64,000 nucleotides of DNA from Lytechinus pictus (Eukaryota). The notes under the pieces are model-generated. The model had not been told where the DNA came from. It did no database searches and was given only the letters and a program-made list of their open reading frames with translations. This document shows positions 24,446 through 62,150 of this stretch, one piece after another. The translations under genes and the position numbers were made by a program. Each line of letters opens with the position of its first letter. Position 1 is the stretch's first letter. Where the stretch lies: positions 42,472,001 through 42,536,000 of the forward strand of contig NC_087251.1 in assembly GCF_037042905.1 (NCBI RefSeq), in the 5' to 3' direction.

Positions 24446-24483
<38 letters not shown>

Positions 24484-24624: not shown

Positions 24625-24684
<60 letters not shown>

Positions 24685-24801: not shown

Positions 24802-24839
<38 letters not shown>

Positions 24840-29216: not shown

Positions 29217-29436
29217 CACTCTAAAAAAACATGAATGAAAATTTACCTAGTATTGAGTAAAAAGGGAACATGCATGTTTGTTGGGTAATTTTCCCTCATA
29301 TTGGGTAAAATTAGTGTTTTAAGGGTAAATTTCAACGCAACATTGCGCAAAATTTACAACGTATTTGGTATTATTTTATCCAGAAAACATGCATGTTCCC
29401 ATTTTACCCAATATTGGGCAAACTTTTTTTAGAGTG
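29217..29436. mobile_element. TA-flanked palindromic MITE
   Basis: TA|CACTCTAAAAAAA ... TTTTTTTAGAGTG|TA; homologous throughout to 13596-13795. Confidence 0.88.
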
Positions 29437-29667
29437 TAACGAAGGTTAGGGATATTGATTGAATCATTTCGGGTTTTTTTTTTCATTACAACATAGTCTA
29501 AATGTATATTTGTTTAAAAAATAATCGTCAGGAAATTTTTGCCGGATATGATTTAAGAAAAGGAAAAATGACAAATTAGGAATGTAAAGAGAAAATCACA
29601 CCTTTTCTTGGAAAAACAAATGCTCATGACAATGCAGAGCTAAAGTGGAAATCCGCGTCTTTCTTAA

Positions 29668-30260
29668 AGGACAAGTCCACCCCAACAAAAATTTATTTGA
29701 ATAAAAAGAGAAAAATTCAACAAGCATAACACTGAAAATTTCATCAAAATTAGATGTAAAATAGAAAAAGTTATGTCGTTTTAAAGTTTGCTTAATTTCA
29801 CAAAACAGTTATATGCACATCCTGGCTGATATATATGCTAATGAGGAGACTATGACGTCATCCACTCACTATATATTTCTTTTGTATTTTATTATATGAA
29901 ATATTCTAATTTTCTCCTCATCGTCAAGTAATACAACGATTAATTCCTCCCTGAACATGTGGAATTAGCATTGTTTAATACTATATGGTTCAGTCAAGTT
30001 GGTCCTTATTGTTAAATCTAAAAAAAATGAAATATTGTATAATTCAAACAATAAAAAACAAAAGAAATAATGAGTGATGGACATCATCGACTGACTCACC
30101 AAGTTGTGCATATCACTGTTTTGTGAAAAATAAGCGAGACTTTAAGATGTCATAGCTTTCTTGTTTTACATCCGATTTTAATGAAATTTTCAGCACTATA
30201 TGCGAGTTTGATTTTTCTCTATTTATTCATGTCAGCATTTTCCTGGGGTGGACTTGACCT
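29668..30260 (-). mobile_element. Non-autonomous Kolobok-type DNA transposon, copy 2 (593 bp, inverted)
   Basis: TTAA|AGGACAAGTCCACCCCA ... TGGGGTGGACTTGACCT|TTAA; reverse complement of copies 1 and 3. Confidence 0.9.
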
Positions 30261-31466
30261 TTAAAGCAGAAAATGTAGTGTTCGATTGTGTTTCATATTG
30301 TCCTATAAATATAGTTTTTTAAGGCTATCAGAATAGATTCTGGTCAGTCTCTAAATTCTTTAGATTGCGATGAGTGATCAATCCAAAACTAGATTAAAAA
30401 TCCCAATCTAATAGATATAGAACTCAATCTCATTATCAATCTACTCACTCAGATTTGTCCCCCATTTCAATCCTAGAATTATATTATAAACACACTCACG
30501 GAAACGCGTGTGTAATTCACGAAACATGGTCAATGTTATACATTTTTTTTCAGCATTCATCAATAGATCGGCGTTGTTCATGTTAAGTTTTCATCCGTTG
30601 CATTCTACATTCCTCGAGTCTTTTCATTTATTTAAAAATTAATAAATAAATGAATCAATGACAACATAAACAGATTAACAAATGGGCGGATGAATAGGAA
30701 TTGAAGAATCATATAGTATAAATAAATGAATAAATGAAAAAGAAAAGATTGAGAATTATCTTAGAAGACCCCCCCCCCCCCGGCCCCTCAACAAAAAAGT
30801 TGATCCAACTCGCGATCCAACTGCTCGGATTTATAGCCAAATGGATTCGAATAAATAAGTATTGATACATTAACAGTTTAAGCTATTTGATTTAATCGAA
30901 CCAGTAATCTCAAGGGAATAATGGGTAAAAACGCACTGCATTTTCACAATTTAGACTAAATGAGCATGGGCCATACTGTAGGTCCATCTCTATCCAAATC
31001 AAATGATAAATAAAGAAAACAAAAAAGGAATAAAACTCGGTAGATGTGTTGGGGAATTGCACTCTTGAAGAAAATGGAACAAGTTTACTTTAATGTAAGT
31101 TAATCGGTCTATGGATCTAATTATGTATTTTTTATTTTCTTAGTCATTTATACATTTTAAAAAGTAATTAAGTCCGACAAGTGACCCCATAATTATTTTC
31201 AAGTAGTAGGCCTATGCACGAACTAGAGGTAACGTAGATTTATCGTATAAGCCCTTTTTATTTAGTCTCACATTTAGATCTAACTGCTAAATGGAAGCTC
31301 TGTCAATTACAAGTTAAGTAGGCCTAACGTTAGGTTAAAACAAAAGTTACGGGGTGGACTAAACTAGAGAATTAGGCAAGGGTTATAACACTAAAAAGTT
31401 AGATCTCGGTTAGGTGGTTAGGCTATTACTTATTAGTTTATTACCTTTCTTTCTATTACTTATTAC

Positions 31467-31855
31467 CTTTCTTTAAGCCCTGCTCTGTCTGCTATTTCTT
31501 GTGAGGTTTTCGGTTGTCCATGGAAACTTGCCATGGCCTCGAATAATCCTGTCTGTCGTCCAACAGCAATAGACAAGGTTAGGAAACCAGAATTGATGGT
31601 CTGAGCCATCCGATGACCAAAATCCATGATCGTTTCTCCATCAGCACCCACGGGAGGACCCTCCGTCATCCCCGATGGTCCAGCCGACATGCCGGGCGGC
31701 GGAGGCATATCTCGCGACAGACACTCGGGCATGTTGCTATTGATGGACACCGGCTTACCGGGGAGTTGCGGCGGGAACGAAGGTGGTACCTGCGCTGGGG
31801 ATTTTAGCATAGTTAGAATGCGGGTTGGCTGCTCCATATTTGTCAAGTATTTCAT
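31467..31855 (-). CDS. Rv2258c-like SAM-dependent methyltransferase, coding exon 1 (Pro-rich N-terminus + start of winged-helix domain)
   Basis: ATG at 31855. Encodes ...MAQTINSGFLTLSIAVGRQTGLFEAM...KTSQEIADRAGLKER. Ends GAA AG|GTAATA (phase-2 donor) and joins exon 2 to give the family motif GLKERYVREWLGAM. The true start could be a downstream Met. Confidence 0.88.
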
Positions 31856-32034
31856 GTATTAAAAAAAGTTTAAAATATTGTTCCGTTATCGATTGATGAC
31901 GTGCAATACGGGCAAAATCGGTTACCGTTTCAAATGAAATTAAATAATTGAAGTCTGGATGAAATCGACGCTATTATAACATATCACAAACCCTTCGTGT
32001 AGATTTCTGTTTACAGAAATTTACAACGCGACGA

Positions 32035-38934: not shown

Positions 38935-40316
38935 CCAGACCAATAAAATCCTCTTTCCCAGAGCAAGAACGGGAAGAACGGAGCAGAAACTCATACCCTG
39001 TCGTCACCCCAATAAATACAGCAATGGAAACACCTTCTAAACCATCAACAGCAGTAAGATATCCATTTCCTTTTCAAGCTCCTTTAGACGCAAGCATTTT
39101 CTTCTCATTCCTTTAGTCTGTAGTGGAAATTGAAGACTGCATATGCCCTTGAAATTCCCATTCAAATATTTTTATATAAATATTAATCCTTGTAGTAATC
39201 CATCTAGATTTCTAAACCAATAAACAATCATATGGGGAAAAAATGGGGCACACATAATAGAATCATAGAAACCACATCAGACTAAGGAATGCCTTTAAAC
39301 GTTTGGACAAAACTGACCCATCAATAGTCATTTTGTGGCTTTTATTTGTGGATGAGTAAAATAGTCACAATAAAATCAGAATAGTCAAATAACGATAACA
39401 GGTTCAAACAATATAGACGCCCAGGAATGGCGATTGATGATGCATAATTCAAGAATCATTATGAATCAATTCTGTTTGTGAATCCTTACCAGTTAATGAC
39501 ATCAGCCACATCCGGTGATTATATTGGTACTGTTTTTAGATGTCCTCCTGAGTGAAGTAGAAGGCTAAAATGAGGTTGCTCTAACTCGACGACGTTTTTG
39601 AAATCTGTTTTCATGTTTCAGTCATAATTGTCTCGAATTCAATGGATAAATGAATACGATTTACTTTTCTATTGTCGCAACGAAAAGTGTTAAAGAAATA
39701 AATGTGGAATCGAACGACCCCGCGCACAGTCAATCACACAATAATTATTATTATCAAACTCAGGTAAACACAGTAAAGATGCAAAGATAAAAAGAGGGTC
39801 AATAAATTAAGAACACAAATATCTGTCAATCTCTCTTAAAAAAAACAAACTTCTTTTCAACCAAAAGAATGAATGTTGAACAAGTCGACAATTATATAGT
39901 AAAAATAAAAAAAACACAGAATGGGAGAATTCATTTGCAAAAATATCCCATCGGAAATGACATTAAAAAATAGTAAGTGGTATAGTTTTATTTTCAGTAC
40001 TCAGTGAGTACCGAAACGATTTAACGAATCTATACTCCAAAAGACAAAAACAATAGAGGTTATGCAAGCCACAGTTATTATAAAAATAAGTAGAAAGGAA
40101 ACCCAAATAATGCTATTTCTATATCAGACTACCGGGGGGGGGGGGGGTTCTGGGTGTATATTCATAGCGCTGTGACGTAGAAACAGATTGTTTAGGCCAG
40201 CAAATAAAGGGGCGAAATAAAGTCACATTCGGTTGAAATATTGATGGAAATAGATGTACATGCATATTCTGTTTTTAAATTCATCACTATTTTGTATCGA
40301 TATCAAGCTTTTTTAA

Positions 40317-40920
40317 AGGTCAAGTCCACCACAGAAAAAAGTTGTTTTGAATCAACAGAGAAAATCAGACAAGCATAATGCTGAAAATTTCATCAAAATC
40401 AGATGTAAAATAAGAAAGTTATGATATTTTGAAATTTCGCTTATTTTTCACAAAATAGTTGTATGCACAATTTACCCACATACATATATGAGAGAATCGG
40501 TGATGTCCCTCACTCACTATTTCTTTTGTTTTTTATTGTTTGAATTGTACAATATTTCAATTTTTACAGATTTGACATTAAGGACCAACTTGACTGACCC
40601 ATATAATGTTAAGCAATGGTAACTCCACATGTTCAGTGAGAAATAAAACTTTGTTTCACAGGACAATGAGGTGAAAATAAGAATATTTCATATTTCAAAT
40701 AATAAAATACAAAAGAAAAAGTGAGTGAGTGACGTCACCAGTTCCCTCATTTGCATACCGACCAGGATGTGCATATAACTATTATGTGAAATTAAGCGAA
40801 ACTTAAAAATGTCATAACTTTCTTATTTTACATCCGATTTTGATGAAATTTTCAGTGTTATGCTCGTTGGATTTTTCTCTTTTTAATCAAATCAACTTTT
40901 TGTTGGGGTGGACTTGTCCT
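40317..40920 (+). mobile_element. Non-autonomous Kolobok-type DNA transposon, copy 3 (604 bp)
   Basis: TTAA|AGGTCAAGTCCACC ... GGTGGACTTGTCCT|TTAA; interior homologous to copies 1 and 2. Confidence 0.9.
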
Positions 40921-43265
40921 TTAATAATGATACATCACTTCTACTAATATTATTTAAGCTTGCTGCGTTCACTCATATAATATGAATTATATTTTGGGAA
41001 GGAAGCGAATTTCACAAGTGAGGTGAACAAAATGAAACACATGGGTGTTATTTTTATAGCAAATAGAGCAAAAGTATCGTTATGCTTTGCCTGTGGCTCT
41101 CGCTATATATAATCTTTATAAAATAGGCCTAAACATCACCGAAAACAAAATAGAACAAATCAATTCAACAATAACAAATGAGTGAAACAATGGACCAAGG
41201 AACATGGAACAATGTATCAACAGAAATCTGTTATATATGTGACTCGTGTAGACATCTATGTATCGGTATAAGCATGGAGGTAGTCTCCGTGGTAGAGAAC
41301 AGAGCTCCACTGTACAATACTGGACAGTTGAATAGAGTATTTTTAAAGTAATCTTTCGCCATTCACTTCTGATTTATTAGTGCACCATATGACAAATTTA
41401 TGGAATAATACCGTCAAGTACCAATGAATGGATGCTAATAAATCAAATTAATTCAATCGCAGTGATTCATCAGTACAACAATAATCTTTGCAATAAACCT
41501 AAATCGCTGAAAAAGAATTGAAAAATGTTCGTGGTTCGGCTTTTCATATCACCCACAACATAAAACGAACACATCCGTTCTGCAATTTAAATGCGAAGGA
41601 AAATTCCACAACGCAGATTACTGTTGAGTGAATAGATTACGTTATTTGGAGAGCGAAATACGATTGTTAATTATTACTGTTTTTATATCATAAATATATA
41701 CACCTTCAAGCACACCCTCACTACACGGAGACTATAGGTTCCTATGCATCTACACATACAGGTCCACTTGGAATAAACATATTACATGATAAAAGGGTAC
41801 CGGGTGGTTGTTTAAAAAATGACCAACGACATTGTACACTTTTCCACATGTCATGGATTAAACATTTATACTTACTCAACTAATTTGGCATAATCAGGGT
41901 GACAGTTTGTTCTTCACCAGTGATTCAAATAACTGTATCACTCGAGTAAATTATATCCAAACTTTCTACAAAATTATACCAAAAGTCTTATGAAGCAGTC
42001 CATCAATATAGGCCATATTATATTGCCTTAATTTCGGGTAAATATTCGCATATAAACAATCCAGTCGGTACAGTATACGTTATGAATATTTCAGAAAAAT
42101 TATGGTTGTTGTAAGAGAGATACAGAATTACTTTTTCATAGTTGCATACCTAAGTGCATTGAATAATTCGAATTGAAAACACTCAGAATTGATAACACGA
42201 TTAATATTTTTAAAAAATATACAAGTTAAACTGAAAAAAATTATTTAAGCAAGTCATTAGTCCACAAATAAAAAAAATGTGATTATTATATTTTGATTTT
42301 GGTATATTTTAGAAGTTGCTTCATTACTTTTTGGGACATATATCGTGATTACAAAATGTGGTTGTTAAAAGATAGCCGGTAGGCCCGGTTTACGTCAAAA
42401 TAGCTGTCGAAAAGGGAGATTTAATGCGACTTGCTAACATAGAATGATGCGTTCTTTTTTTCCAACGATTTTTTATGTAATCCAGAGTATATCTTACACA
42501 ATATATTGATTTTGTTAAGGGGGGGGGGGGTGTCTTGCCAAATATGACCTTACCCCTTCCCGATCAATATCGATAAAATACACATTAAAAAAAATTCTGT
42601 AAAATAATGTCCATGCATGGTAAAATTTAAGTTTGATTTTGATTAACGATTTTGTTATACCTATTTGCTATGTAAAAGGGACAAATTTTTACTTTTTAAA
42701 ATGATAATTATAAAGACAAAAAATAATGAGCAGGCTTCCGAATCACCACAGCCCGAAATGGCACCGCAGGAGGGCAGGCATAGTACAAGTAGAGAGAAAA
42801 AAAAAAGGGGGGGGGTAGAAGAAAAGTACTATAGGAAAGAAGGAAGAATAGTAAAGATACGAGGATCTGCCCGACTTCCAATTTCACCTCCTTTCAGTGG
42901 CGTACGCAGGGGGGGGGGGGGGGTTACAGGTGTTACCCCCCCCCCTTTAATTTTTTGATACCCAAACCCCCCTACAAATGTTGAAGAAGCCTCCTTTTCT
43001 ATTTATTTGATGGATTCCCAGATTCACGAGTTCTTGAACAATAGCCTATATAGTGATATATATATATTTTTTTCACGCTCACTTTTCAGCAAATACCTTT
43101 CTATTCTTTTTCCTCTTCTTCATTTCTTTTATCTCATTTCCATTCCCTTGTACTTTCCCTCTTTCCTTTGTGTTCTTCTTCATTCTTTTATGCCCTCTGT
43201 CTATCTCGTAGTTACTGGGAGGTACGAGGTGGCAGAATGGACACGGTCGTTTATAGTCTGCTATG

Positions 43266-43437
43266 CAAGCCCTTCACTCGAGCTAAGGGTCTGAATGTGC
43301 AGCCTACTAATGCCTTGTGTACTGAATTAAAGCCCTACTCGCTCCTGAATCGAAACAGATTTGCTTGTCTTTGCATGCATGGAGACACACTTGTTGATCA
43401 AAGTTTCATTCAGGGTCTGTACCTGCAGACTAACAGC
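43266..43437. repeat. Interspersed repeat, second copy at ~54416-54546
   Basis: CCCTTCACT..GAG.TAAG.G.CTGAATG and TGGAG.CACACTTGTTGATCAAAGTT.CA.TCAGGGTCTGT.CCT.CAGACTA occur in both. Class unknown. Confidence 0.75.
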
Positions 43438-43805
43438 AGTTTGGGCAATGGACTCCTTCATTAAAAAAAAATCATTCTCTCCCCGCCCCTCCCCAGTCGA
43501 GTCCCCCTGGACTCGACTTGGGGGGGGGGGCGGGGACTTTTCTCTTTCCCTCTACCTGCCTACCCCTTCTCTAACTTCGCCTTTCCGTTCCCCTTCTTGT
43601 GCTTCTCTCGTCTCTCTATCCTATTTTTTTGCTGGGGTGGAGGTGGGGGGGGGGGGGGAGACCATTCGGTTCCCTCTGGATCAACGCCTGGTGGGGTATG
43701 CGACTATGCAAATAAAATATGGTAGGCCTTTAGAAACACCTTATTTGTTGCTGCCTCAAAACGGTTGCTCCGGACGCCATCATGCGAAATCGACGGACTT
43801 GGAGT

Positions 43806-43978
43806 GGTGTGTGTGTGTATTTGAGTTTTGTCAGACATATCAATCAGATATGATTATTTACGTCTGGGACCGACCTTTAACGTCACCATCCGAAAGACGT
43901 GACCACGGCTCGAACCTCTGCATCAATTTATAACTTCCCCCACAGCTTAGATTACAGGCGCACGCCACAACGCCCAGT
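43806..43978 (-). mobile_element. SINE-like element with 7SL(Alu-domain)-like head, box-B-like motif, Deu/Nin-like core and (CA)n tail
   Basis: Minus strand reads ACTGGGCGTTGTGGCGTGCGCCTGTAATCTAAGCT...GGTTCGAGCC...GTCTTTCGGATGGTGACGTTAAAGGTCGGTCCC...(CA)n. Confidence 0.65.
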
Positions 43979-44089
43979 TGGACAAAATATGCAAAATTAC
44001 GACGTAGATGGCAGTCTTACTAAATGCGACAACTGAAATGAGAAAAAAAAAATGAGAGAATCGTGGTTGTCACGTTTTTTTCTCTCGAC

Positions 44090-44149
44090 CAGTGGCGTAC
44101 CTAGGATTTTCCACAGGGGGGGCAAAACCGTCCGCCAAAAAATTTGACA

Positions 44150-44187
<38 letters not shown>

Positions 44188-44365
44188 TAAAGCTCGTCAG
44201 GGGGGCATTAGAGGTCTTAAAGCTCGTCAGGGGGGGGGGGGGGGGCAAAAAAGGTTTTTCAAGCCCGTCAGGGGGGGGGCAAAGATACGTTTTTGCATGG
44301 GTTGTGACTCGTCAGGGGGGACAGAGTGCCCCCCTGCCCCCCCCCCCCCCGTAGGTACGCTAGTG
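44090..44365. mobile_element. hAT-type MITE (276 bp)
   Basis: Perfect 8-bp TSD CTCTCGAC (44082-44089, 44366-44373); TIR CAGTGGCGTACCTA / TAGGTACGCTAGTG; internal CTCGTCAGGGGGG repeats. Confidence 0.9.
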
Positions 44366-45739
44366 CTCTCGACCAATGAAGTCTGTCACTACTTGTATTG
44401 CTCCTTTAGCTTCTAAACATGATTGTTTACCCATGATTCCTATTTGAGAGCCCTTATTGGAAATTATGACAATTAGGATGATGAACAACAAACATAAAAA
44501 ACAAACATCCAAATTCTCATATTAATCTCATAATATTGTGATGAAGTTTACTGCAAATCGTGTGCACGACTATGACTTCACAGGGTTCTCAGTTCTCACA
44601 GTGCCTTTTGTAATCCCGTGAATTGTTTCAACATTATCGAATTATCGTCAATATGTTTAAATGATATAAAATAAAAGAAATAAAGTGTAAGTAACGGTTT
44701 AAGCATATATATGACTTGTAATATGCAAAAAATTTCATTGATAGATCTACATGTATTGATAATATACAATATCTAAAAGCATTCGTCAAAAATTAAATTT
44801 GATCAGAGAAATACAGATTAGTAAAAGCCTCATTCATTTTTTATAATTGCAGGAATGTTTTTACAGAAATTAAATCCTGAACACTGTCTTTCAAATTTAC
44901 AAGATTGTCACATAACATTTCTGGTAGTCTTCCAGGGACAGGAAGACCAAGGACTTGGGAAGCTTCTAAATTTAAAGGTCAAGTTCAGACAAGAATATTT
45001 TATTTGAATTAAAAGAGAACAAGGGGAGTGCTTCTGGCAGTCTCGCCTGCATTACGCGATTCAATATAGCAGCAGTGCTGACTTTGAAAATGGATTGAGA
45101 ATAATTTTTCACAAAAACACCATTCATATAATATACTACTACGTTCATTGACCCTAAATTACATTTTACCTTGATCACGTGACCTACGACTGAAAAAAAA
45201 GAAAGACATTTCCTGTGAAATAATTCATTTTCCTTGCCGGCGTTTTAAAACAGTTGTCCAATCCGCCCCATTCGCATCACACTCAAGGGTGAAGACATGT
45301 TGCTGAGCCTACCACTGTGCGCATCTGTACTCGCCTAGAAAGCCTCGCTGCCCACCAAGCTGCAAAGCTCCCTACTATGTAGCAGCATGTCTGCAGAGTT
45401 TCCTTTCCTCTTTATAAGCCTTTGAGCGATGCGATGAATGAAGCTACTAACAGGTGGAACGAACAAAAATATAAAATGACTTATTCTCGGAACATGTTCA
45501 AAACTATTCATACTCAGGAACATCAATACACTATTCTTGGGAGAAGAGTACTGATTTATTTGATGTTCCTCTGATGCGAATTATTACAGTTAGTTTCTCA
45601 AGCGTCATGTACTTCATGTATTTTGGTTACCGTAGTCACCAAATAATCTCCCAATAATAACTTTTGATTGGCTGAACACTGAAAATTGTTGCCATTGTAA
45701 TTATCATTTAATGGCAAGGCTACCATAAGAGTAACTTAA

Positions 45740-45824
45740 CCCATTGCATACTGAATGACTTTGCTATAACACACGTTTTCTATAGACCCCAGCCCGCATT
45801 TATGTAGATTCAGTCTCTAACAGG
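45740..45824. mobile_element. 85-bp piggyBac-like mini element
   Basis: TTAA|CCCATTGCATACTGAAT ... ATTCAGTCTCTAACAGG|TTAA (12/17 inverted match). Confidence 0.55.
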
Positions 45825-46319
45825 TTAACATTTCATGCGACAAGGTCCAAAATTGTAATCACTTGACTCACTCTTCAAAGGAAAATAATACCTCAACAAC
45901 TTCATACTTTTCCTTTCAATGACTTGTTTAATATCAACTGCATCATAATGTTACAAGCAGGGTCAGTCTCTTTTACAACTTCACACTTTTCTCAACTGAA
46001 AAAAAGTACATAAATGTGAAAATAAATATGCACAGGCTAAGTATTTATTCTCATAGATAGCAAAGCGTGGATTAAATGTAATTACCTGTTAAAATGATGT
46101 GTGTGGAGTTCTCCATTGTGCCTATTCAAACAGAATCCCCACACAAATTTACAGGATACATTGCAATTTGAATGAATTGGATATTCAATATATATTACCT
46201 ATAGATACGTATCTATGCATGTATGTCCGTATGTATGGAGCTGGTATTTTGCACCAAAGCAGTGAATGAGAAGCTGGGTGCATAGATCCAACTGCAGCAC
46301 TAGTGCCCTTTGGTAACAT

Positions 46320-46505
46320 GAATACTCCCCAGGGAGTGGAGGATGCCAACGTCACTCTAGATTGCCCAGCATTGGGAGTACTTCACACTGCAACTAACTG
46401 GAATATTCCCCACGGAATGGATGTCAAAGTCACCGTAGATTGGCCAGCACTGTGAGTACCTCACACAATAACCAACTGGAATATTCCCAAGAGAGTGGAT
46501 GATGT
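46320..46505. repeat. ~80-bp tandem repeat, about 2.3 units, following a decayed SINE-like head
   Basis: GAATA(C/T)TCCC..G(G/A)AGTGGA recurs at ~46320, 46400 and 46479. Upstream GCACTAGTGCCCTTTGGTA matches the 8214 SINE. Confidence 0.7.
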
Positions 46506-46874
46506 GCATACATTGTATGAAGGAAAAGCTTACTTTATCTGATGATGATTGGATGATACTTATCAGTGACTTAAAGACACATGATGTTTCAAGATGAAAA
46601 AGGGGCTCTTATTACTCATCTGATAAGTTTTACCCTTTAGAATGCTTACCAGCTCCTTCGATAACACCTTCCTAGTCCGACAAGCATGATAATTTGGACT
46701 ACCGATAATTCAAAATGATGTGCAAAACACTAGCCAAACTGCTTTTGTAGACTCCTTTCATGATGCAAGAGCTTTCGGACCAATTCGAAAGTTCTTTTCT
46801 TGTTTAATAATGAGCACAATATTGATGTCAGGCATGTGTATTGAAATTGAAATCACGATGTCTTACAAGATTTG

Positions 46875-47241
46875 TCATACAAATTTACTCGCGATAGCAA
46901 ATACTTTTGAAAACTCCGGTCTGCTCCTGAGATGGGATGGGATTGGTACCTTAATCCTTGTTCCTGTAGGGTTACCGTTCTCTTCTAGAAGTATTAAATT
47001 GTTCGTATCAAATCGAGGCAACATGCTGGAACCGGGTCTCCTCACTCCTACGACCAATGCCTTCTTTTTCTGCCCTCTGATGGCCACCAGGATCTTGTCC
47101 CCGACATTGCCGACTCGCTGTTTGTTGTAGACGTGGATGCAGCGTGGGGGTTTGTGCCTGATGCTCTCCGCTCCCAAGGACGAATTGTCAACACACCGAA
47201 GTCTGGTCAACAGGATGATCGCATTGTAGGGGCTGGAGGCA
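46875..47241 (-). CDS. MRPL14: Mitochondrial ribosomal protein uL14m, last coding exon
   Basis: Acceptor ccaaacAG|T. Encodes [12 protein letters not shown]...PRCIHVYNK...[19 protein letters not shown]...PRFDTNN...[13 protein letters not shown]...[11 protein letters not shown], the recognisable metazoan MRPL14 sequence. Total CDS 450 nt = 149 aa + stop. Confidence 0.97.
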
Positions 47242-48134
47242 CTGTTTGGATGTCAAGATAAAAAGATAATAGTGAGAGAACTGGAGCATGGAAGGAGTAC
47301 CGAATCTTCATAAAAACAACTAGATTGATATTTTACTGTCAAAATTTATGACTCTAACAGTGTGAGGTCTTATAAGATCCGACATACTACCAAGATCTCT
47401 CAAACTAAACAGATATTGTCACTCCACTACACATACTTCAACTAAGTTTGATGATGATCCCTCATCAGATGGTTCTTTAGTTATCGCAAGAATGAAATAA
47501 TGAAGGATGGACAAAGGAGTGAGAGGACTTGAAATTGTGATGAACCTATTGGGCAGTGGCAAAAAATATACTGCTTTGAAAAACAATTTTTTTTTAAAGA
47601 ATATAAATGTGCATAATGAAACTATGAAATATGGACATCGTGAAGTATAGGTCTTGGAATATGAATACAGTATAACTATTAGGATATTTATTCATTATAA
47701 TGGAGAATACAACTTTAACACTCAACAAGGAAGGAATATTTCCTTTGAACATACAAGATATTTCATGATTATTTGATCTTTTCAAAACATGGTTATGCTG
47801 GTATTTCCATTTCACTGGCCATGACAACAATACATGTATTCAGGAAAACATGAACAAGAAGTAAATTCATCACAAAAAAAGAAAGAAATACATGATATTA
47901 TAAAGATGGTTATCCGCAATTCAAATGATGCGTTGAGGGGTCGTTCTAACATGATCTGGAAGTCCAATCCACCCGGACTCTGGACGATCTGTAAGTTTGC
48001 CAAATTGTGGCAAGATCGTCATTGTGGAACAGATGATTTGCAAATTCATCAGAGTTTAACATTTTTGCTTCAATATACTGTACCAACACAGTGTCTATTA
48101 CTGCACTGCTGCATTCCTTATCCCGGGAACTTAC

Positions 48135-48217
48135 TTAAAAGCCCTACATGAGACATCACTAAGGTGTTGTCCAATCAGATTTGAGTTCTTCAACAAGATG
48201 TGTCCTAGTCCTGCCAT
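48135..48217 (-). CDS. MRPL14: Mitochondrial ribosomal protein uL14m, first coding exon (probable targeting peptide)
   Basis: Acceptor ttttacattgtAG (exon begins 48226), ATG at 48217, MAGLGHILLKNSNLIGQHLSDVSCRAF, donor AA|GTAAGT in phase 2 matching the next exon. Confidence 0.88.
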
Positions 48218-48981
48218 AACTTGGACCTACAATGTAAAACAAAGACCAATAAAAAAATTATTTATAATACACTATGAATATGTACATTTAGATACATGAA
48301 CAGAGTAAGAAAAAAAACAGAACAGGTACATGAAACAGGATATCAATAGGGGAAGATTGAGGGATAAGAGATCCTTCATATGGTTATCTTATTTTTATTT
48401 ATTTACTTATAAAAAACATCCATCCATTAAAGTGGCATGTCAGAATCTAATATTGCCCATCAAAATGTGTTCTCCTCTTTTTTGGCAACAGCAAATGATG
48501 TCACTGGGCTGTATGCCAGTAGCATCACTAAGCTGAGAGAGGAACGTCAAGCGCTGGCATCCTCATGCTCTCTTTCCTTCTATAGCAACAGTAAGGGCCA
48601 CTGTCTCTAAAGCTTAAAAAAAACAAGCACCCCCTTAAAAAATGGCTATCAAAATTAAGTTCTTATGTACATGTATTTGGCTGCTTTTATATTCTTGTGC
48701 ATGTTTTTTTAATTTTTTTTTTGTAAGGAGCTACATGCTGAGATGAGAGTGAGATGCTTATCTGTAATGTCACAAAATCACAACTTTACTAAAATTCAAG
48801 ACCATTGTTTGATGGATTTTTATCAAACTTTCACCAACGTTTTTCACTAATTTTTTTCTGCTAAAACCAACTTTTTTAAAATCCTCTCATTGTCAATAAT
48901 ACCGTACTCTCACTAAAGGAATGTCCAGTTTCAAGAAGGCTGCTCTCCCTGCTGTCAGAACAATGGCTCCCAGTCCCATAT

Positions 48982-51804
48982 GGGTCATTCCATAAAGGTC
49001 GGACGTACATTCGGACACATTTAAGAGCTGAATCTCCTTTGATTTAATAGCAGCGTTTTAATTTTTCCAGTATATTATAACATGTGACCTAGGCTATCAT
49101 TACACCATGACAGGACCAGGCTGCTATATAAAGAATAGAAAATATGGGCAAAAATGTGAGGGGTCGGACGTACATCAGACAAAAGCAGGTTTTATGCTTT
49201 TAAAGTTCATGTCAAAATCTCTGTGATTTGTGTGATGCAGTTACTGAAATTCTAGTATTGGCTGTTAGCTAAAGGATGAATCTTTAAAGAACTGAAGTGA
49301 AGAAATTGATAGACATTGCCTTGTTTTAGTTACAGGCTGATCTATTTGGGGTCGGACGTACACTTTGAGGGGTCGGATGTACATTGTGCAAAATATTTGC
49401 ACACTGTACATCCGACCCCCTTTGAAGATCAGTTACACAAAACGTAGAAATTCTAAACTGGAATTTTTTTGTTATACATACTGCTTGGATAGTTGTCTTT
49501 CACATAAGACAGAATTAACAAATTAATCTGATGCTGGTGAAGAGTTTTGCTTGATTATAGTTGACATGCATCCAGACAATGTACGTCCGACCCCAATACT
49601 GATTTTCTTACAATCAAGCAAAATACTCCTCATATCTGTTATAAATGAGTCAGAGGGGTTAAACTGTTTCCATTTTGATATCTACATTTTTAGACCACAT
49701 CAATAACAAAACAACACAACTATTCACACAATGCAGGATATTTTTAATATTAAACTTCAAGTAAAATGTATCTTTTTTAATGGTTTGCAAAAGACCTGAC
49801 AAAGAATTTCTTCAACATTAAAAAACTTATCCTGTTACAAACTTTGTTTAAACAAGGTGGGTTTCGAATAATGAGTCTTCCCTGATGTTGCAATCAATTG
49901 TATGCATTATGACCTTTTGACCCCTAGATGACCTTTGATCTTTCCATCCTCAACTTCCTCAAGAACATATGTGGTTTTTCCCACTGATCGTTTTGTTCCA
50001 AGTTTGAGCAAAATTAATGCAGAAATACTACATATGACATTTTTAGCCCCAGATTACCTTTGACCTCTCCATTCTCTTTACCCATGGATAATTTGATCCA
50101 AGTTTGAAAACAATTGATGCACAAAAACCTTTACCTTTAGCAACAGTGTAACCCCCTGAGTCATTTGTAATATGTGGAGCAATTTGATTGACTGTAAGAA
50201 AATCAGTATGGGGGTCGGACGTACACTGTCTGAATGCATGTCAACTATAATCAAGCACAAATCTTCACCAGCATCAGATTCATTTGTTAATTCTATCTTA
50301 TCTGAAAGACAACTAACCAAACAATCATAACCACTTATCATATCATTTGTTACAAGTTTGAACAATATTGATGCACAAAAAAAGAAATTTGATTTATACA
50401 AAAACTGTCAAAAAATGACTGAATAGCCTCTTGTCTTTTGACTCCTAGATGACCTTTGACCTCATCAACACAAACATGGTATAAGGATCATTTGTACCAA
50501 GTGTGAACATGGTTGATGCAGAAATAAAGAAATGAGAATAAGTCAGAATTAAATGAATAACCCTTCACATTTTCATAACTTACACCCCTGTTGGCAAAAG
50601 TGGAATAGTCTTGACACCCATGTATCATTATAGCAATGGGCAGATCTATTTCCCATAGAGGGGCGAGTGCTGTATCTGAGATTGAGGGGAATAGGCAATT
50701 TCTTATTTTATATGTATGGAACTTCTTTGTTTAATAAATTTCTCATGTATTTGTATGTTTTTATTTCGATTTTTTTAATTTCCTGCAGGCTATTGTTCAA
50801 TCATAATTACCACTAAATTGAATGATAATTTGAGATGAAAAAAGACAGTTTCCATTGAATGTGTACACAAAACACAAATAAATCATCATTTCTTGAAGAT
50901 GATATCATATGAAAATCTACATATTGTCAAAAATGAGTGGTATTTTTTGTGAAATTGGTCTCAAAACTTGTGCAAGACTTCAAAGAAAAAAAAATGATAA
51001 AACTACACAGCAATATCACCTATGTTAAGGTATATCATGCAAAATGTTAAAGATGGAAGGTAATTTTTGCCCCCAGTATTCGTTGGGTAAAAAAAATACA
51101 AAAGGTCATTGTTAAGCTATGTATAAAATTGAAATTTGTATATGATATTGAAAGACTTATATGAGTAAAAGATGTTATGATATTTAAACTTTGCTTCTAA
51201 GCAGTGCAAGATAACTTCATAAAAGAAGTTGCAATGGGGTCGGACGTACAGGGGGTCGGACGTACAAAAAAGTTGTACGTCCGACCCCCATTTAACTTGA
51301 AATCCCGGACTAGTGGTGAGCTGCCTTCTGGTGTATATATTAAATAAACCAAACTTGCTTTGCATCTGACTTTGGAAAAATTTCTTTGCTTTTGTTTTGC
51401 TTGTAAGAAAAAAAGTGTATGTGAAAAGGGGTCGGACGTACATTTGAAAGTGCCTGCTTCTAATATTTTTTATTTAAAAAATATAAGAAAAGTATAAAAA
51501 AACCTAACTTTTTTTTTAGAAACCTAACATAATAACAACTTGGACAACATCCAACTTTAATTATTTCAAAGCTTATATAAAGTTTAAAATATGTTGCAAA
51601 CTTGACCTTTTAAAATAAGTAAAATTGCAATTTGTTGCTATGGTAACTTCAATGCCTTGCCAAAATGAAACGATACATTATTTGAAATGATTTCTTTCAG
51701 ATTCATACATTTCAGTGTCTTAGCTTTCAAGTGATACCTAATTTGTTCTGTTTGTAGGATTTTGAAATTTTGACCAAAAGGTTTACTATTTTATGGAACA
51801 GCCC
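48982..51804. mobile_element. 2.8-kb non-autonomous TIR element with ATAT TSD (Sola1-like)
   Basis: ATAT|GGGTCATTCCATAAA ... TTTATGGAACAGCCC|ATAT; 11 copies of GGTCGGA(C/T)GTACA in both orientations; no long ORF. Confidence 0.8.
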
Positions 51805-51827
51805 ATATTCCCACGACAAATTCAATA

Positions 51828-54344
51828 GCATGCAGATCTAGATTGGTTTTTACTTGCACTTGCAGAGAATAACTTTCCTGGTATCGCATCGCAATTTGCT
51901 CCACATTTTTGAAAGACTGCTCTGATGCATGGGGGCATTTTCACGGTACCTGACATTACACGGCACAATGTTTTCACACCTTTCATTGTGTGCATATCTC
52001 TAAAGCAACAAATGATGGGAGTTTGCTTTTGATAGAGTTAATAAAGTGAACCTTGCTGCATACTCTGATACTAAGTTTTCCTATGTAACCACATTTTTTT
52101 ACGCATCAGCAAGCAAAAATGTGTCGGTAACTGACATTACGCAAAAGGACATGCAATTTCAGGGTGTTCATTAAAATTGAAATATCTCATGTCCCTGAGT
52201 AGATAGAGTAATAATTTGAATATGTAAATATACCTCCGTTACTAGGTTAAGATGTGTCAAAAGATTAAACAATTTGATTTTGTCTTTTGGGGGCTATAAT
52301 AATTTTTCCACAACCATGCTGGTAACTGACATTACACTTAATTTGCCATAGAGATAACACATGGAAGTCAAATGTGTGGAATCATTGCATTGTATCTTCT
52401 GTGCAGGGCTTCACATGAAAGTGAGCTTGATGTGGAAGTATACCCGAGTTTCTAGGAACATTTCAATTAAAAAACTTTTTCTTTTTCTTAATTCCTTTCT
52501 TTGATTTGAAAAATACACATTAACATTTACCAGTGCTATATGATTTTCAAAGGCATAATTTTCTTGGTACTTATATGTAAGGGTTTTTAAAATCATAAGT
52601 TTCATAATACTTCACATTTTTAATTATCAAAAGATAAGAAATGTATGTTTTACTTACTTGGGGGGGGGGGGGGTAGGGTCATAGCAGCTACATGTTTTCC
52701 TACAGTAATTTAATATTGCGTTGACTGTACACATTGATTTTTCTGACTATACACCCATAATATATCCATCAGTTTTATATTGACTTTTTAAACCTTTTCC
52801 TTCTCCAACCTCCCCCTCCCCTCAAAAAAGGCAAAATGAATACGGGTCTCCTCCCCTAGGCTACACGTACCCCTCCCCGAATCTCATGCAGCCATGTAGT
52901 TTTATTGATATCTATTCTGGTCAGTGCAAGCAATGCTTGTTCATATCTGTCAGATTTCAATTATCTTCATAATTGTTTAATCATTTTCTTTGCTAATTTC
53001 TCTTTTAAGCTGTCAACAAAAAATAAACTCCAGCTTCTAAACTGAAACTGAACTATTTGTAAATTAGAACAAAAAACACACAGTTTTAGCAGATCCATGC
53101 AACATTGATCAGAACTGTCAAATTTCACTTTTCATCTATACTTGTAAACCAAAAACAAAATTGTATCACACACCCACACTACTAACAGGTATAAAAACCA
53201 GGAATTTACTTTTAGCGAGGCAATGCTCAAAAGAATCCTAGAAACTAAAAAAGGGAACCTGGAAATCCCCTTCATCACAATGTTAAGCTTAAAAAATGTT
53301 GCAGATAGGTTGGGAAAAGTACCCCCTACCCCCCCCCAAAAAAAAAAAAAAAAAAAAAAATTGTCTGATACAAACAGTTAGGTACTTGGTAAGTGCATGT
53401 ACAAAACAATTTCATAGTAATTTTTTTTTGCACGATGGGAATGCAACTTCCTTCATTTTCATATAGTATTCCTTGTGAACTATACCTTTTAAAAGTCAAT
53501 AGCAAGCTCCTTCTGGTGTTTCTTTTAAAGTGAAAGACTTAAATAACAAGTATACAATATTTCTTCACCATAAAATTGACCACATATTTGCATTTCAATA
53601 TTGGTAACCAACGTTTTATCATGGTAACTGACATTACATCTCGGTAACTGACATTACATTTTCCACTTGGTAACTGACATTACATATATTTAATGGTACC
53701 CTATGGCTTCATTGTTAATTGGTAATCTTTAATTTTGGTGTAGAAGGGAGGGGTGTTACCTAGAGAGAAAATCTACCAAGTTTCATATAATATATCCTCT
53801 TTTCCAGGAAATGAGAAAAAAAAGTTCATGTTTTCGGTAACTGACATTACATACCATATCACATACTTCATCAATGTTTTTTTATCAGATGAATGAATTA
53901 CTGGTGTTTCTTTCTGTGGGATTTTAAAAAGTGTTATAATAGCAAGCTAAATCACAGGCGAAAACATCATGATCAAACCTGTTCTTTAAAAATCTCTCAA
54001 AACAAAATATGTATCAATACTATTTTCAACACTAATTTGTATCCATACTTTGGCAGCCATTTTGAAATAAAAAGTGGCTGCCAGAGTCGGAAAAAAATTT
54101 GTCTCAGAAACTTCAGGTCTTGTTTTATTAAAAAACATAAAGCATTTGACATGAATATCAACATGATTTTTTTGCCTCTGTGTCCATCTGTGGTGAAAAT
54201 GCCCATAAAGTCTTTTGTATAGCATATTTTTACATAGGACTGTACATTACTTAGTTGAGAGCCTCTCTCTTATGACCAAAAGCGCTATTCAAATTTGTAA
54301 AGCAAAATTATTCCCTGACTTGGCATAGCCAAAGATCTACATGC
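51828..54344. mobile_element. 2.5-kb non-autonomous TIR element with GGTAACTGACATTAC repeats
   Basis: Imperfect ~55-bp TIRs GCATGCAGATCT..TTGG...CAGAGAATAACTTT / AAAATTATTCCCTG...CCAAAGATCTACATGC; 7 motif copies. No TSD resolved. Confidence 0.65.
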
Positions 54345-56109
54345 ACTGCCCATAGGTCCCATAGGTACTAGCGATTAGCGTGTTTTACTGTACACCAAAA
54401 AATTAGTCTGCTGGGCAAACCCTTCACTGATGAGTTAAGAGCCTGAATGCCTTGTATACTGACGGCCCTTTTGTATGTGCTAGTCTTTACGTGGAGGCAC
54501 ACTTGTTGATCAAAGTTCCAATCAGGGTCTGTGCCTACAGACTACCAAAAAATCCCATAGACCCATACACATCGCAGTGGTAGTGGTACATGGAGACATC
54601 ATGCCATGATGATACACGAATGAGATTGGTTAGCTTGTATGTATGTGCCAGCTGCATTAGTAACATGAAGACAAACAATCGACGTACCTGACACCGGCTC
54701 ATCGGAATAAAAATTTTGTATTTTACATCACATATTTCAAGAAACTGTAGTGGTAAGCTGATTTTAGTCATAAAAAAGTTGATTTTAATTCCTGCACTTT
54801 GTTTCTCCCATTAAAAGTTGGATCCAAGGAGAAATTAGAGAGGGAGAGGTAGCGCACCATTCAGCCCCCATAGGCCTTGCATGAAACACCACCATTAAGT
54901 ACCAGTCCTATCGGAGTCTTCAAAGTCTTAAAACTAGTTTTACTGATAAATTGATGTGTGTACTCATCATCATTTTTGCACTTTGGAACAAACTCCAACC
55001 ATCTCTCTGAAACATGCACCTCTTCAAAAAAAACATCTTATTTTAGGTGATTTTTAGAACTTGTGATAATAGCTTTACAATTGATACCATTGGAAAGAGG
55101 AACTCTTCCAGATCTGAGAACACTTTGAATTTTTGAAAATTGACCCAAAGATTCATTAGTTATGCCCTATTATGTTTCCGCAATTGGACATATTTGACCA
55201 AAGGTCATTCTTTTGTTTTACTTTGTTGTGAGAATGGCACCATGAAAAACCTGACATATTTTCAAACTTGTGTTATTCCCGTGTTTTTTGCATTACAGGT
55301 ATGAAACTTAGGACGTTAGTAGATATATTATATTTTGCTTTGATGTATTTTTGCATGGTCAAGGTCATTAGTAATAAATTTATGAAATATTAAATCATAA
55401 TTTTTGCATATTTTTAAAAATATTTTTGCCTTTCTGGTCAATTAATGTGGAAATGTTTAGTTGAATATGTGTAATGCTATTCTAAAGTATGAAAAAATAT
55501 TTTTTGACCACCACCTGGAATATCAGAAGTGTTATTACCTTGAACTTGACCTTCAAATCATAATTTTTATCACATTTTCCTTCTCGTGTCAGTTCAACAG
55601 GAATTTTAATGAAGATTGAGCTTTATTATGTCATTTAGCAGTAAGCACATGTACTTTTTTTAACCATTGGACGATTGGTGGGAAATTCATGTTATAACCA
55701 CTCATTCAATGAACAAGGTTATGGTTATTAGTATAACCTTGAACTTGATAATGAAATATGAAATCATTATAATTTCATCACACTTTCCCCTAGTATCAAT
55801 TCTACAGGAATTTTAGAAATGTAGCATGACGCATATCCTCCGATATGCGTCATGTAGCTTGACGAAGAACAAAAGGAAACAAGATGGCGACATGAACATC
55901 GCGACAGGTTTTCCCCATCTTTTTATGTTTTTCTCGTTTTTAATGAATTCTTGTTTAAATAAAATGACTATATATTCACATATATATTATTGTTTAAATG
56001 AAATGACTATATATTCACATATATCATAATCTATCTTACAATAAAAAAAAAAAATCTACTGACATTATGAAGTACTAAGTAGGCATGAAACCTATCTAAT
56101 CAGCATTTC

Positions 56110-56398
56110 AACTAGATCAACTTAGGTCGGCCAGTGATCACCTTCGCCTCACATATTCATTGACTCGTACTTTAGCTGGTGACAGAACTTTTACGGTGTC
56201 GGCTTCAAAATCCTGGAATGACCTGCCACTAATAATTAGACAGTCTCCAACATTAGCAATTTTCAAAAAGTCATTAAAAACTCATCTCTTTCGTACTTTG
56301 TAGTTTTTAAAATATTACATTTAATTAATTCATTGTAAGCGCTTTGGGCCTAATGGGAAAAGCGCAGTACAAATAACAAGTAATAATAATAATAATAA
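56110..56398 (+). mobile_element. L2-group LINE 3' fragment
   Basis: Encodes LRSASDHLRL...TLAGDRTFTVSASKSWNDLPLIIRQSPTLAIFKKSLKTHLF, followed by GCGCTTT..AAAGCGC stem-loop and (AAT)n tail. Confidence 0.88.
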
Positions 56399-57434
56399 AA
56401 TGAAATCAATTCAATGTAGTATAAAATGTCGGAAATGAAGTTGTAATCCCAGGCCAGGCCCATGGCATGGCCATTTACATGATTTAGGGCTAGATCTTTT
56501 AGAAGCAAGCCAGGAAAGTAGAAATCTCGGGGGCGAAAATTCAGTTTTTTTGCGGTACACGCACATGAATGGGACGCAATCCCTGGACTACTCCATGGAG
56601 AGTAAGCACACGTTAGTATTATTTATTAGTAAATTATTTTACTTTCTAGAAGCCATACACAGTGGTAAGTATATGGGACCGAAGTAATTTACCAATCATG
56701 CCAATTATTTTGGCAACCTTTATTTTATCAATATTAGAAAATTCGAGCAAATCTTTGCCAATTGATGATCATTCAATTACAAAGCATTTACATACCTCTT
56801 AAATATGAATTCTAGGACCAGAATATCTCCACTCTGCATTAGATTTCGCCCTCACAACGACGATTTTAGACAATTTTCCTATTTTTCGAGATTCTGGCAG
56901 CTGATGGTACGATGTCTCTGATATACCAAATCTGTAAGTAAAATATTTGAAGTCGGTGCTGCTGCATCCGTGGCTGCAACGCTCGCCCCACTTTTTTTTC
57001 TTGGATCAGGATTACTATTGTGATTTAAAAACATAGTTGCGCGTAATATGCTAACTTGAAGAAATCGAAAGATGGAGAAAACGTAGATGTAAACAAGTAT
57101 ATGTGTGTCTCTACCAGCAGTGCCTTGATAGGCTTGATTTGTATAAGTTGTGTGTGTGTAAACTAATATTGCATTAAAATATTTACAATGCATCCCGGGT
57201 AATGCATGCTTTTCATGAATTTTGCCGGAATTTTGTATATAACTTGTAAATGATACAATATCATTCTTTTCTCTATAACATGTACATGCATGGGGCCTGG
57301 TCAATAGATCATTAAGATCAAGCATTATTTTGGGGGAATTTCAACTGTGTGAAGTATAAACTTTCAATTTTCAAATTCAGAAAAAAATACGATTTCATGT
57401 TTGAAGGTGCCCAAAGTTAGCAATTGCTAGTAGA

Positions 57435-59595
57435 CACGGGCGGAAATCCCAGGGGGGACGCGTCCCCCCTACCATTTTGGAAAGGGGGGGGGGGGACATA
57501 ATATCAAATGTCCCCCTACTATTTGTGGTCTTTTATTATGGAAAAATACATAATTCAAAATAGAAATTATACACATGTATCCTCAAATTTCGAAATATAT
57601 ATAAACAGATTTTTGTTCAGAACTTGGATAGGAAAAGAAAAGGCATACCGGCCCAACTATTCTCGAACTCGCATCTAGCCCTATATGCCAGCCAAAGAGT
57701 GGTGACATTGATGACATCGATGGCCATTGTCAATTTCATAACTAATAAAAATGACGAAAAAAGAAAATCGCCTCTGAATACTTATAAGTAAATTTAGTGC
57801 ATAGATGGTAAACGAGAATGTTCCATACTCCGTAAAAATACCTTTGTTAAACCAATTCATTTTCCCTTTATTCCAAATTTACTTGGAATATAAGAATATT
57901 TTCATTGTTCGCGTACTCAGTAAAAAGAATAGTTTTCATGAGTTATGATTAATCCTTCGCAGTGAATTTTAACTATGTTTAATCCCCCAAAATTTGTTTT
58001 AAATACTCTATTTACGAGACTTTTATATTCCATTTTTACACAAAATTCCTGCCGTGGGAGGGGTCATCATACTAGATCAAGGGGGCGAAGCGGCGGCCCG
58101 CCCCCTTTTGGCGGCGCATATTAAAATAGGAAAGTGAGGAGAAAAATAAGACGAGGAAGAAAATTAAATGATGGAAGGGGAGGGGAATAATTGGAAAAAA
58201 AGAAAACTTTCAGGTCATAGTATAAAAATGAAAAAATCGCCGGCGCTTTGCATTAATACACAGCCATCTCTTTATTTCAAAACTTGCTTATTTTTTTCAC
58301 TTTTTAGACCGAAATATATAAAATCAAATCATTTATTAAGGAAGATATCCATCTTTTTTCATAATTTGTACGTTTAAATCTTTAAAAAAATTAGCTCGCG
58401 CTTTGCTCTCGCATCACTTATTGGGACAAACTGCTTGTTCTTTATTTCAGAAGTGCTTGAAAGATCCAGTTTTCAGATCTGAATATAAAGAAAATCATTT
58501 CGCGCTTCGCGCTCGAATCAGTAATATGGTTGAGTCAGATACTATCCTGTTTGTTGCTATAAAGTGAAAAGGAAATGACTTTTTTGGTTGGAAAATAAAA
58601 AAGATCAGGATACGCTTCGCGCTCACATTGATTAAAATTAAGTTAGATAGCTACCCTGTCCTTGATTCTAAAATATGCTAATAATATCAATTTTTAGGCC
58701 GGAAATGTCATGTCTTCAGCACACACTTTGCGCTTGAATTTAATATTGTTTAGTAAAATTCCTATCCTGTTCATGGTTTGAAAAAGTGTTACGATTGTCC
58801 AGTTTTTAGGTTGCAAAAAATACAAACTTTCAGCTCGCGCTTCGCGCCCGCATTAATTGTTTAGATTCCTATCCTGTTCATAATTTTTTTTTAAGTACTA
58901 GGAATGTCCAGTAATTAGGTTGGAAAATAAAAAAAACTTTCACCTCTTGCTTCGCGCTCGCATTAATTGTTTAAATTCCTATCCTGTTCATATTCTTTTT
59001 AAGGTGCTATGAATGTCCAGTTCTTAGGTTGAAAAATAAAAAACTTTCAGCTCGCGCATTCATTGTTTAGATTCTTTATTTCGTTCTTTATTAAATGCCA
59101 AGAATGCCCAGTTTTTTTTCAGCTCGCGCTCGCATCTATTATTTAGTTGAATTCCTATTCTGTTCATGATTTGAAAAAGTGTTACGAATATCCAGTTTTT
59201 AGGTAATTCCTATCCTGTTCATGATTTGAAAAAGTGTTACGAATGTCTAGTTTTTTTAGGTTGGAAAATCAAAAACTTTCAGCTCGCGCTTCGCGCTCGC
59301 ATTAATGGTTTAGGTAGGTTCGAATCTAGTTCATGATCATAAAAAATGTTCAGAATGTTCAATTTCCAGGTCACAATTGATGAAATATCAACATATTTGG
59401 GCTCGCGCTTCGCGCTCGCATTATTTATTGAGGTCTTTCTTCTTTAGTTAGGAATACCTCCCCTCTTCGAAATATGTATATAATTATATATATATATATG
59501 TATGTGTGTGTGTTTGAGTTAGTAATTCTGTAGAACATAAAAACGGAAAACTCAATTGTGTCCCCCCTACCTTCAACGAGAGATTTCCGCCCATG
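57435..59595. mobile_element. 2.16-kb non-autonomous hAT-type element
   Basis: Perfect 8-bp TSD CTAGTAGA (57427-57434, 59596-59603); TIR CACGGGCGGAAATC / GATTTCCGCCCATG (13/14). Confidence 0.9.
58390..59430. repeat. Degenerate ~110-bp tandem array inside the hAT element
   Basis: About 10 units marked by GCTCGCGCTTCGCGCTCGCA, CCTATCCTGTTCATG and GTCCAGTTTTTAGG. Confidence 0.88.
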
Positions 59596-62145: not shown

Positions 62146-62150
62146 GTTAG

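Follow-up and report, generated by a model that had tools for sequence, protein, structure and literature searches.

A 7SL RNA 5′ domain on a tRNA-type SINE body in the sea urchin Lytechinus pictus: a candidate chimeric retroposon

The Element and Its Layout

The window analysed here is a stretch of 64,000 nucleotides (64 kb) from the sea urchin Lytechinus pictus (NCBI RefSeq assembly GCF_037042905.1, contig NC_087251.1, positions 42,472,001 to 42,536,000). On its minus strand, at 43806-43978, lies an element that begins like 7SL RNA, the RNA in the signal recognition particle (SRP), and continues as the body of a short interspersed element (SINE). A 7SL-like head, an RNA polymerase III (Pol III) box B, a core akin to the 5′ beginning of Deu/Nin, a 3′ hairpin and a (CA)6 tail are all present, and a preliminary description of this DNA had put all of the parts that it claimed at this very place. 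Pol III boxes A and B, a body and a simple-repeat tail are general features of SINEs, and judged by its motifs the element possesses each of them. The features are given below in the order in which they are read on the minus strand; L001, L002 and L003 are marine-metagenome contigs that carry relatives of the body.

43932..43978, minus strand: 5′ Alu domain of 7SL (SRP) RNA, model positions 1-45, with closing helix, two hairpins and U-turn (cmscan alignment)
~43973-43964, minus strand: putative Pol III box A inside the 7SL piece, at 7SL positions 6-15, placed as described in PMC7245038
43917..43931, minus strand: 15-nt linker from the 7SL domain to box B; 3/18 identity to the SRP consensus past position 45, and 4-6 of 16-17 identical to L001-L003
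43907..43916, minus strand: Pol III box B of tRNA type, exact GGTTCGANNC
43866..43903, minus strand: 38-nt conserved core, like the start of the Deu/Nin domain (Inv/alpha-like); 36, 37 and 38 of 38 identical to L001, L002 and L003
about 43832..43866, minus strand: 3′ stem-loop, a candidate LINE (long interspersed element) recognition signal, predicted by RNAalifold from 4 copies; 27, 32 and 32 of 35 identical to L001-L003
43807..43831, minus strand: A-rich end and (CA)6 microsatellite tail, read from the sequence, with (CA)6 at 43818-43807
43758..43761, minus strand: first T4 run of the 3′ flank, a possible Pol III terminator ~45 nt beyond the tail; predicted transcript 221 nt

What had been described beforehand as a box-B-like motif, a Deu/Nin-like core and a (CA)n tail turned out to be an exact box B, a core with 36-38/38 identity to its relatives, and (CA)6. 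Apparent partial matches at 59520-59500 and 19850-19866 were dismissed, as they consist of CA runs only.

The 7SL-Derived Head

A cmscan search of window positions 42500-45000 (2,501 bases) against 4,227 Rfam families returned 30 matches at E<=10, the best of which was to Metazoa_SRP (RF00017) at 43978-43833 on the minus strand (29.1 bits, E 4e-5); the others were mostly microRNA models lying on G/C runs. Rescaled, the RF00017 E-value amounts to ~1e-3 for the entire 64-kb window, or ~2e-7 per window counting that family alone. That the score stays far short of the gathering score of 70 is due to the lack of the S domain and of the 3′ Alu strand, the 5′ domain alone giving a match; 217 model positions were skipped by cmscan. 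Counted by hand on the cmscan alignment, identity to the Rfam consensus is 34/45 over model positions 1-45 (28/34 at the start), with two 1-nt insertions, and collapses past position 45, where only 3 of 18 positions (46-63) agree.

The Alu domain's secondary structure is largely kept in the head, with 12 of the 14 model pairs retained and two altered on both sides. Both of these double-sided changes lie in the closing helix, all three pairs of which are retained, as are the three pairs of the second hairpin; the first hairpin retains six of eight, the remaining two being one U-U mismatch and one G-G that is present in the consensus too. Read off the same alignment, the SRP9/14 triad G4/U23/G24 and the GGC-GCU loop-loop triplets are also intact at the level of sequence. 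Both the stacking of this triad at the SRP9/14 site and the loop-loop pairing are defined in PMC12265939.

No tRNA family occurs among the 30 Rfam matches at E<=10, and ARAGORN called no tRNA gene in the window. Further SRP pieces were likewise lacking from 1-43690 and 44000-64000 in an Rfam search at E<=0.05. The SRP match and the lack of a tRNA match support the head as an SRP Alu-domain fragment rather than a tRNA, which is how the preliminary description had seen it.

The label of an Alu-like SINE, however, survives only in part. A 5′ Alu domain of ~46 nt and a SINE body are present, but no 3′ Alu strand is retained (the stretch that cmscan paired as such is the SINE body common to tRNA-headed relatives), and from box B onward the sequence appears to belong to a tRNA-headed SINE lineage. 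It is thus supported by the alignment that the element, 7SL-like only over its 5′ domain, is not Alu-like in architecture. The S domain, and with it any full-length 7SL of the P7SL type, is absent from the element; a full-length 7SL pseudogene was rejected on account of the missing S domain and the 217 skipped model positions.

A Body Shared with tRNA-Headed Relatives

A 26-nt motif from the core has three exact matches in the metagenome collection, in L001, L002 and L003, for a chance expectation (independent, identically distributed bases) of 2e-4 per 1e12 positions, while the body motifs had no match in viral contigs (3 patterns) or prokaryote genome contigs (2 patterns). Over the 82 nt of window positions 43903-43822, the three relatives are identical to the window copy at 70, 76 and 79 positions. 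Their tails occupy the equivalent place, with (CA)n in L002 and (CCAA)n in L003, L001 being cut by the contig end. Upstream of box B the four sequences part company: L003 has a box A with one mismatch 70 nt ahead of box B, L002 has one with two mismatches at 44 nt and a head that is interrupted there by another element, and L001 offers weak box A candidates only. None of the three heads gave an SRP match at E<=5 or a complete tRNA. Going by these alignments, the body is truly that of a SINE and is shared between loci; since it stands behind three different tRNA-type heads as well as the 7SL head, it is one that swaps heads.

The 82-nt body is 85-96% identical to the window copy and stands under four different heads in unrelated contigs, which would reflect either unusually strong conservation or recent exchange across hosts. 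The element interrupting the tRNA-type head of L002 is a ~360-bp insert (80-438) with inverted ends of ~16 nt, Harbinger-like by eye.

The exact box B sequence GGTTCGANNC occurs five times in the window against 0.63 expected, and the other four sites lack the body of the element. Box B lies 19 nt ahead of the core anchor in the window copy, equal to all three tRNA-headed relatives in an ungapped alignment. This constant offset across four copies argues that box B, at least, derives from a tRNA parent, and box B was probably inherited from a tRNA-headed parent SINE. For the 15-nt linker in front of it, there are two candidate origins, either a tRNA remnant of the parent SINE or a shortened helix 5 of the host 7SL.

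By eye, the start of the core matches the AmnSINE1 Deu-domain row in the supplement of PMC7245038 at 23 of the first 28 columns, and it also resembles the Deu start of BivaMD-SINE1. This likeness is limited to the first 28-38 nt, and the remainder of the Deu domain is absent. In the literature the Inv/alpha subdomain is equated with Nin's 5′ end, and Echinodermata are among the groups given for it; the partial core would fit this subdomain by its description. Downstream of the core, RNAalifold predicts a 3′ hairpin of 7 bp + 6 bp with a variable loop in all four copies. One of the 28 predicted pairs overall is altered on both sides, outside this hairpin, and 2 nt of the 3′ stem are deleted in the window copy but in none of the three relatives. 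No 3′ end shared between the element and a LINE was found inside the window, the LINE-like fragment at 27711-28175 (see below) included.

Genomic Setting

The window is A+T-rich (GC 0.31-0.43 in 2-kb bins). A neighbouring gene piece, at 46875-47198 on the minus strand, is the exon in which the coding sequence for mitochondrial ribosomal protein L14 (MRPL14; Pfam PF00238) ends. Its identity is 97% with a Lytechinus variegatus cluster, 93% with Diadema and 73-76% with further named echinoderms and hemichordates, which by itself places the host among sea urchins near Lytechinus, in keeping with the invertebrate host assumed from the start. The element lies on the same strand ~2.9 kb beyond the MRPL14 stop, past three AATAAA and three ATTAAA sites, and ~12 kb upstream of a split methyltransferase gene; its position is most likely intergenic. 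The latter gene comprises exons at 2252-2983, 4539-4814 and 31463-31858 (all minus strand) of one Rv2258c-like S-adenosylmethionine (SAM) methyltransferase. As its winged-helix domain is divided between 31466-31858 (profile 2-39) and 4539-4814 (profile 39-75), an intron of ~26.6 kb is implied. An open frame of 400 amino acids at 60943-62145 (plus strand), rich in serine and lysine and with no Pfam family at E<=0.001, is probably a large exon of an unannotated gene.

Other mobile elements are found on both sides. About 110 bp upstream of the element, 44090-44366 holds a miniature inverted-repeat transposable element (MITE, a non-autonomous DNA transposon) with imperfect inverted ends of 17 nt (44087-44103, 44352-44368) and direct repeats at 44082-44094 and 44366-44378 that are consistent with an 8-bp target duplication; from the length of this duplication, we take it to be hAT-like. 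Downstream of the SINE, 43478-43661 is an element of G/C runs with a near-perfect 22-nt hairpin (43483-43530) and 18-nt inverted ends, probably another MITE. Ordinary tRNA-headed SINEs with clear boxes A and B occur at 7800-7990 (minus), 8190-8380 (plus) and 11370-11570 (minus). The copies at 7903 and 11482 have a common body (77% over 96 nt), while the copy at 8264 has a different one, presumably Meta-like. The body of the 7SL-headed element is in none of these three SINEs of the window.

Further repeats include a family of ~620-bp inverted-repeat elements (29658-30265 against 40930-40312, 81%; regions 27273-30268 and 40308-40930), one copy of which is apparently split, 27273-27445 and 28164-28593 flanking a LINE-like fragment. 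This fragment (27711-28175, minus strand) resembles a reverse-transcriptase C-terminus, a label given by eye and with no Pfam match. Finally, 23300-25150 is a ~1.8-kb trinucleotide microsatellite of (TAC)n type with long spurious open reading frames and strong GC skew.

Proposed Origin and Alternative Explanations

We consider it likely, with good though incomplete confidence, that the element is one copy of a family of chimeric non-autonomous SINEs in a camarodont sea urchin, in which the 5′ half of a tRNA has been replaced by 7SL. The ancestor would have been a tRNA-headed SINE that carried a Deu/Nin-5′-like core and a 3′ hairpin and ended in a CA-type tail. In place of the 5′ half of its tRNA head it would then have received the first 45-47 nt of host 7SL RNA, probably via template switching during reverse transcription. 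Box A in the 7SL portion and box B in the tRNA-derived portion, both visible as motifs, may together act as a hybrid internal Pol III promoter, with a predicted transcript of 221 nt that runs to the first T4 in the flank. The 5′ domain, with its determinants intact, would fold as the Alu pseudoknot and bind SRP9/14, by analogy with data on the human construct SA46 (see below), and SRP9/14 might bring the RNA onto ribosomes translating a partner LINE, the reverse transcriptase of which would recognise the 3′ hairpin and microsatellite instead of poly(A) and insert the copy. The partner is probably not L1, since no poly(A) and no target-site duplication were found. All of these functional steps are ones that we infer; what has been observed is the anatomy of the sequence.

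Several observations weigh against such a family. The whole element is present as a single copy within the 64-kb window, as had been remarked beforehand, and all three relatives fetched have tRNA-type heads, the 7SL head being in none (0/3). No target-site duplication abuts the ends in the flanks searched (40 nt and 56 nt, minus two bases beside the head), the best flank match being 9 nt with one mismatch away from the element ends. The folding energy of the head has no advantage over shuffled sequences (z 0.55 for 49 nt, with 145/200 shuffles equally good), and that of longer pieces is also unremarkable (z 1.32 for 79 nt, z 0.44 for 146 nt). The covariation term for the 3′ hairpin is 0 in the four sequences, with no double-sided change there. 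Moreover, part of the loss of identity past position 45 might stem from the host 7SL having diverged from the Rfam consensus: the 5′ domain is the best-conserved portion of metazoan 7SL, and for that reason the boundary at position 45 is possibly a mere limit of conservation. As to the energies, a weak free-energy signal is unsurprising for a pseudoknot that is stabilised by protein, but it does nothing to strengthen the case either.

The lone copy in the window and the tRNA-type heads on the three other copies of the body would equally suit a one-off chimeric retrocopy, in which a single insertion joined a 7SL 5′ fragment to a 5′-truncated tRNA SINE, with no amplification afterwards. Chimeric retrogenes of this kind are reported in human (Buzdin 2003). 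The fragment, however, spans the entire functional 5′ domain and ends at its edge, and the fusion brings box A and box B together in a complete promoter, as a selected, amplifiable unit should have; besides, a single event would be unlikely to turn up in a given window, so that a copy encountered at random is likelier to be a family member. On these grounds we think a one-off retrocopy rather unlikely. A domesticated single-copy Pol III small-RNA gene, BC200-like and combining a 7SL domain with a SINE body, would account for the intact promoter boxes and fold, the T4 ~45 nt beyond the tail and the intergenic position, but the private 2-nt deletion in the 3′ stem that sets this copy apart from all three relatives speaks against it, and orthologous conservation or expression is unsupported; we give it very little credence. 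It seems just as doubtful that a decayed tRNA head resembles 7SL by chance, both beginning with a G-rich box A. The tRNA-type heads of the body relatives, the 29.1 bits against a gathering score of 70 and the unremarkable folding energy would be in line with such mimicry; against it stand the 34/45 identity, the three helices, the triad and the pseudoknot triplets, an E of ~2e-7 per window for the one family, and the lack of any tRNA family at E<=10 or ARAGORN call. It was rejected on the strength of the SRP model match with intact determinants and no tRNA match.

The resemblance of the head to the 5′ end of Alu and 7SL also raises human Alu contamination or mis-assembly, an explanation that we regard as exceedingly improbable. 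The closing helix departs from the metazoan consensus by two double-sided changes, the head is continuous with a marine-invertebrate SINE body, and the neighbouring gene is a sea-urchin MRPL14; the changed pairs, the unbroken join and the urchin neighbour led to its rejection. A different matter is whether a 7SL-headed family is already on record, in Repbase, in Dfam or in some RepeatModeler library, possibly under the wrong label of a tRNA SINE, which would be compatible with a chimeric SINE family and bears on its novelty but not on the mechanism. We allow this a modest chance, as Repbase has sea-urchin SINE2-1, -2, -3, -4c and -6_SP and the Inv/alpha domain is listed for Echinodermata, but the papers of 2024 and 2026 discussed below list no invertebrate 7SL SINE, and no paper was found with the three body motifs.

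Returning to the chimeric family, since the three other copies of the core are all tRNA-headed, an independent SINE family remains something that we infer. The wider claim of an independently arisen, multi-copy 7SL-headed SINE in an invertebrate, a fourth origin in which a minimal 46-nt SRP9/14-binding domain sits on a tRNA-SINE chassis without poly(A), seems to us fairly probable.

Published Context and Significance

SINEs derived from 7SL are a great rarity, and their described origins number three in the sources drawn on here, all of them vertebrate: Euarchontoglires, hagfish and shrew mole (PMC7245038, PMC13023118). The author of the hagfish SINE1 study wrote in 2024 that primates, rodents and hagfishes are the only groups from which SINE1 is known. 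Kosushkin et al. (2026, PMC13023118) extend the list to Urop of the shrew mole and lay weight on the shared central deletion; in the text of the latter, the words 'invertebrate', 'urchin' and 'echinoderm' occur 0 times. The success of 7SL SINEs is argued to come after a near-identical central deletion that leaves both Alu-domain strands in place (PMC13023118). The sea-urchin SINEs in PMC4824008, PMC4758252 and PMC5804259 bear, where they appear, Repbase SINE2 names and thus belong to the tRNA-headed class. No invertebrate 7SL SINE was found in the published literature, with Repbase, Dfam, SINEBase, subscription journals and some supplements outside the search.

If the element belongs to a multi-copy family, it would be the first 7SL-headed SINE described from an invertebrate, and with its 5′ domain alone the family would break both patterns, that of vertebrate-only origins and that of both-strand retention. 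It would likewise be a natural match to the 46-nt minimal domain defined in human cells and imply that the shared 183-nt deletion is not the sole route from 7SL to SINE. SRP9/14-mediated docking to ribosomes would then be a portable module, one that promotes retroposition with any partner LINE. Since the body exists with tRNA heads too, pairs with swapped heads on one body would show directly if retroposition with a non-L1, non-poly(A) partner gains from SRP9/14 binding.

Comparison with Known Systems

A precedent is the hagfish SINE1-1_EBu, described as a chimera that arose when 7SL was joined to a tRNA-headed SINE of older date (Kojima 2020, PMC7245038). The urchin element is like it in the 7SL Alu-domain head with conserved fold, the chimeric 7SL/tRNA-SINE birth, the microsatellite tail and a non-L1 partner (the last presumed for the urchin element). 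SINE1-1_EBu, however, keeps 7SL 1-96, its own box B, the 3′ Alu strand and bipartite RTE tails (PMC7245038), whereas the urchin element has positions 1-45 only, a box B that would stem from its tRNA parent, a Deu/Nin-5′-like core, a CA tail and an invertebrate host. With Alu, B1 and FLAM/FRAM of Euarchontoglires and with Urop it has in common a 5′ Alu domain with the SRP9/14 determinants, the 7SL piece that drives human Alu, and an internal Pol III promoter. Yet these are described as internally deleted 7SL (~183-nt deletion) with both Alu-domain strands and poly(A), mobilised by L1 (PMC13023118), while the urchin element is without the 3′ strand and without poly(A), and about three quarters of it are non-7SL.

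A mixture of tRNA-derived and 7SL-derived parts is also seen in the Tu SINEs of tree shrews, the leftmost unit of which is described as of tRNA or dual 7SL/tRNA origin; unlike the urchin element, these are mammalian, belong to the Alu/B1 lineage, are dimeric or trimeric and have no Deu-like core. In the core, the urchin element resembles the Deu/Nin/Inv(alpha) SINEs, for example, AmnSINE1, BivaMD-SINE1 and the sea-urchin SINE2-3_SP, as it has the Deu start, and head swapping is typical there. The Deu/Nin/Inv SINEs described in the sources drawn on have tRNA or 5S heads, none 7SL, whereas the urchin element is 7SL-headed and has the start of the domain only.

In extent the head matches SA46, an engineered minimal Alu domain of ~46 nt from the 7SL 5′ end that deletion work in human cells had brought to light (Moldovan, Yin and Moran, PMC11760393). 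As a laboratory construct, SA46 relies on a cytomegalovirus (CMV) promoter, poly(A) and L1 ORF2p; the urchin element would be its equivalent in nature, with a promoter of its own and a tail other than poly(A). As to formal classification, SINEBase defines a SINE by at least 60% identity to tRNA, 5S or 7SL over at least 60 nt and by at least 100 interspersed copies per genome (PMC3531059); over 63 positions the identity here is 37/63 (59%) against the Rfam consensus, a figure that may differ from that against the host 7SL gene. By sequence the element is SINE1-like in its head, yet without the retention of both Alu-domain strands that is common to all SINE1 families described. It is, in class, a 7SL-5′-domain/tRNA-box-B chimeric SINE of sea urchin and as such a variant of the 7SL-derived SINEs.
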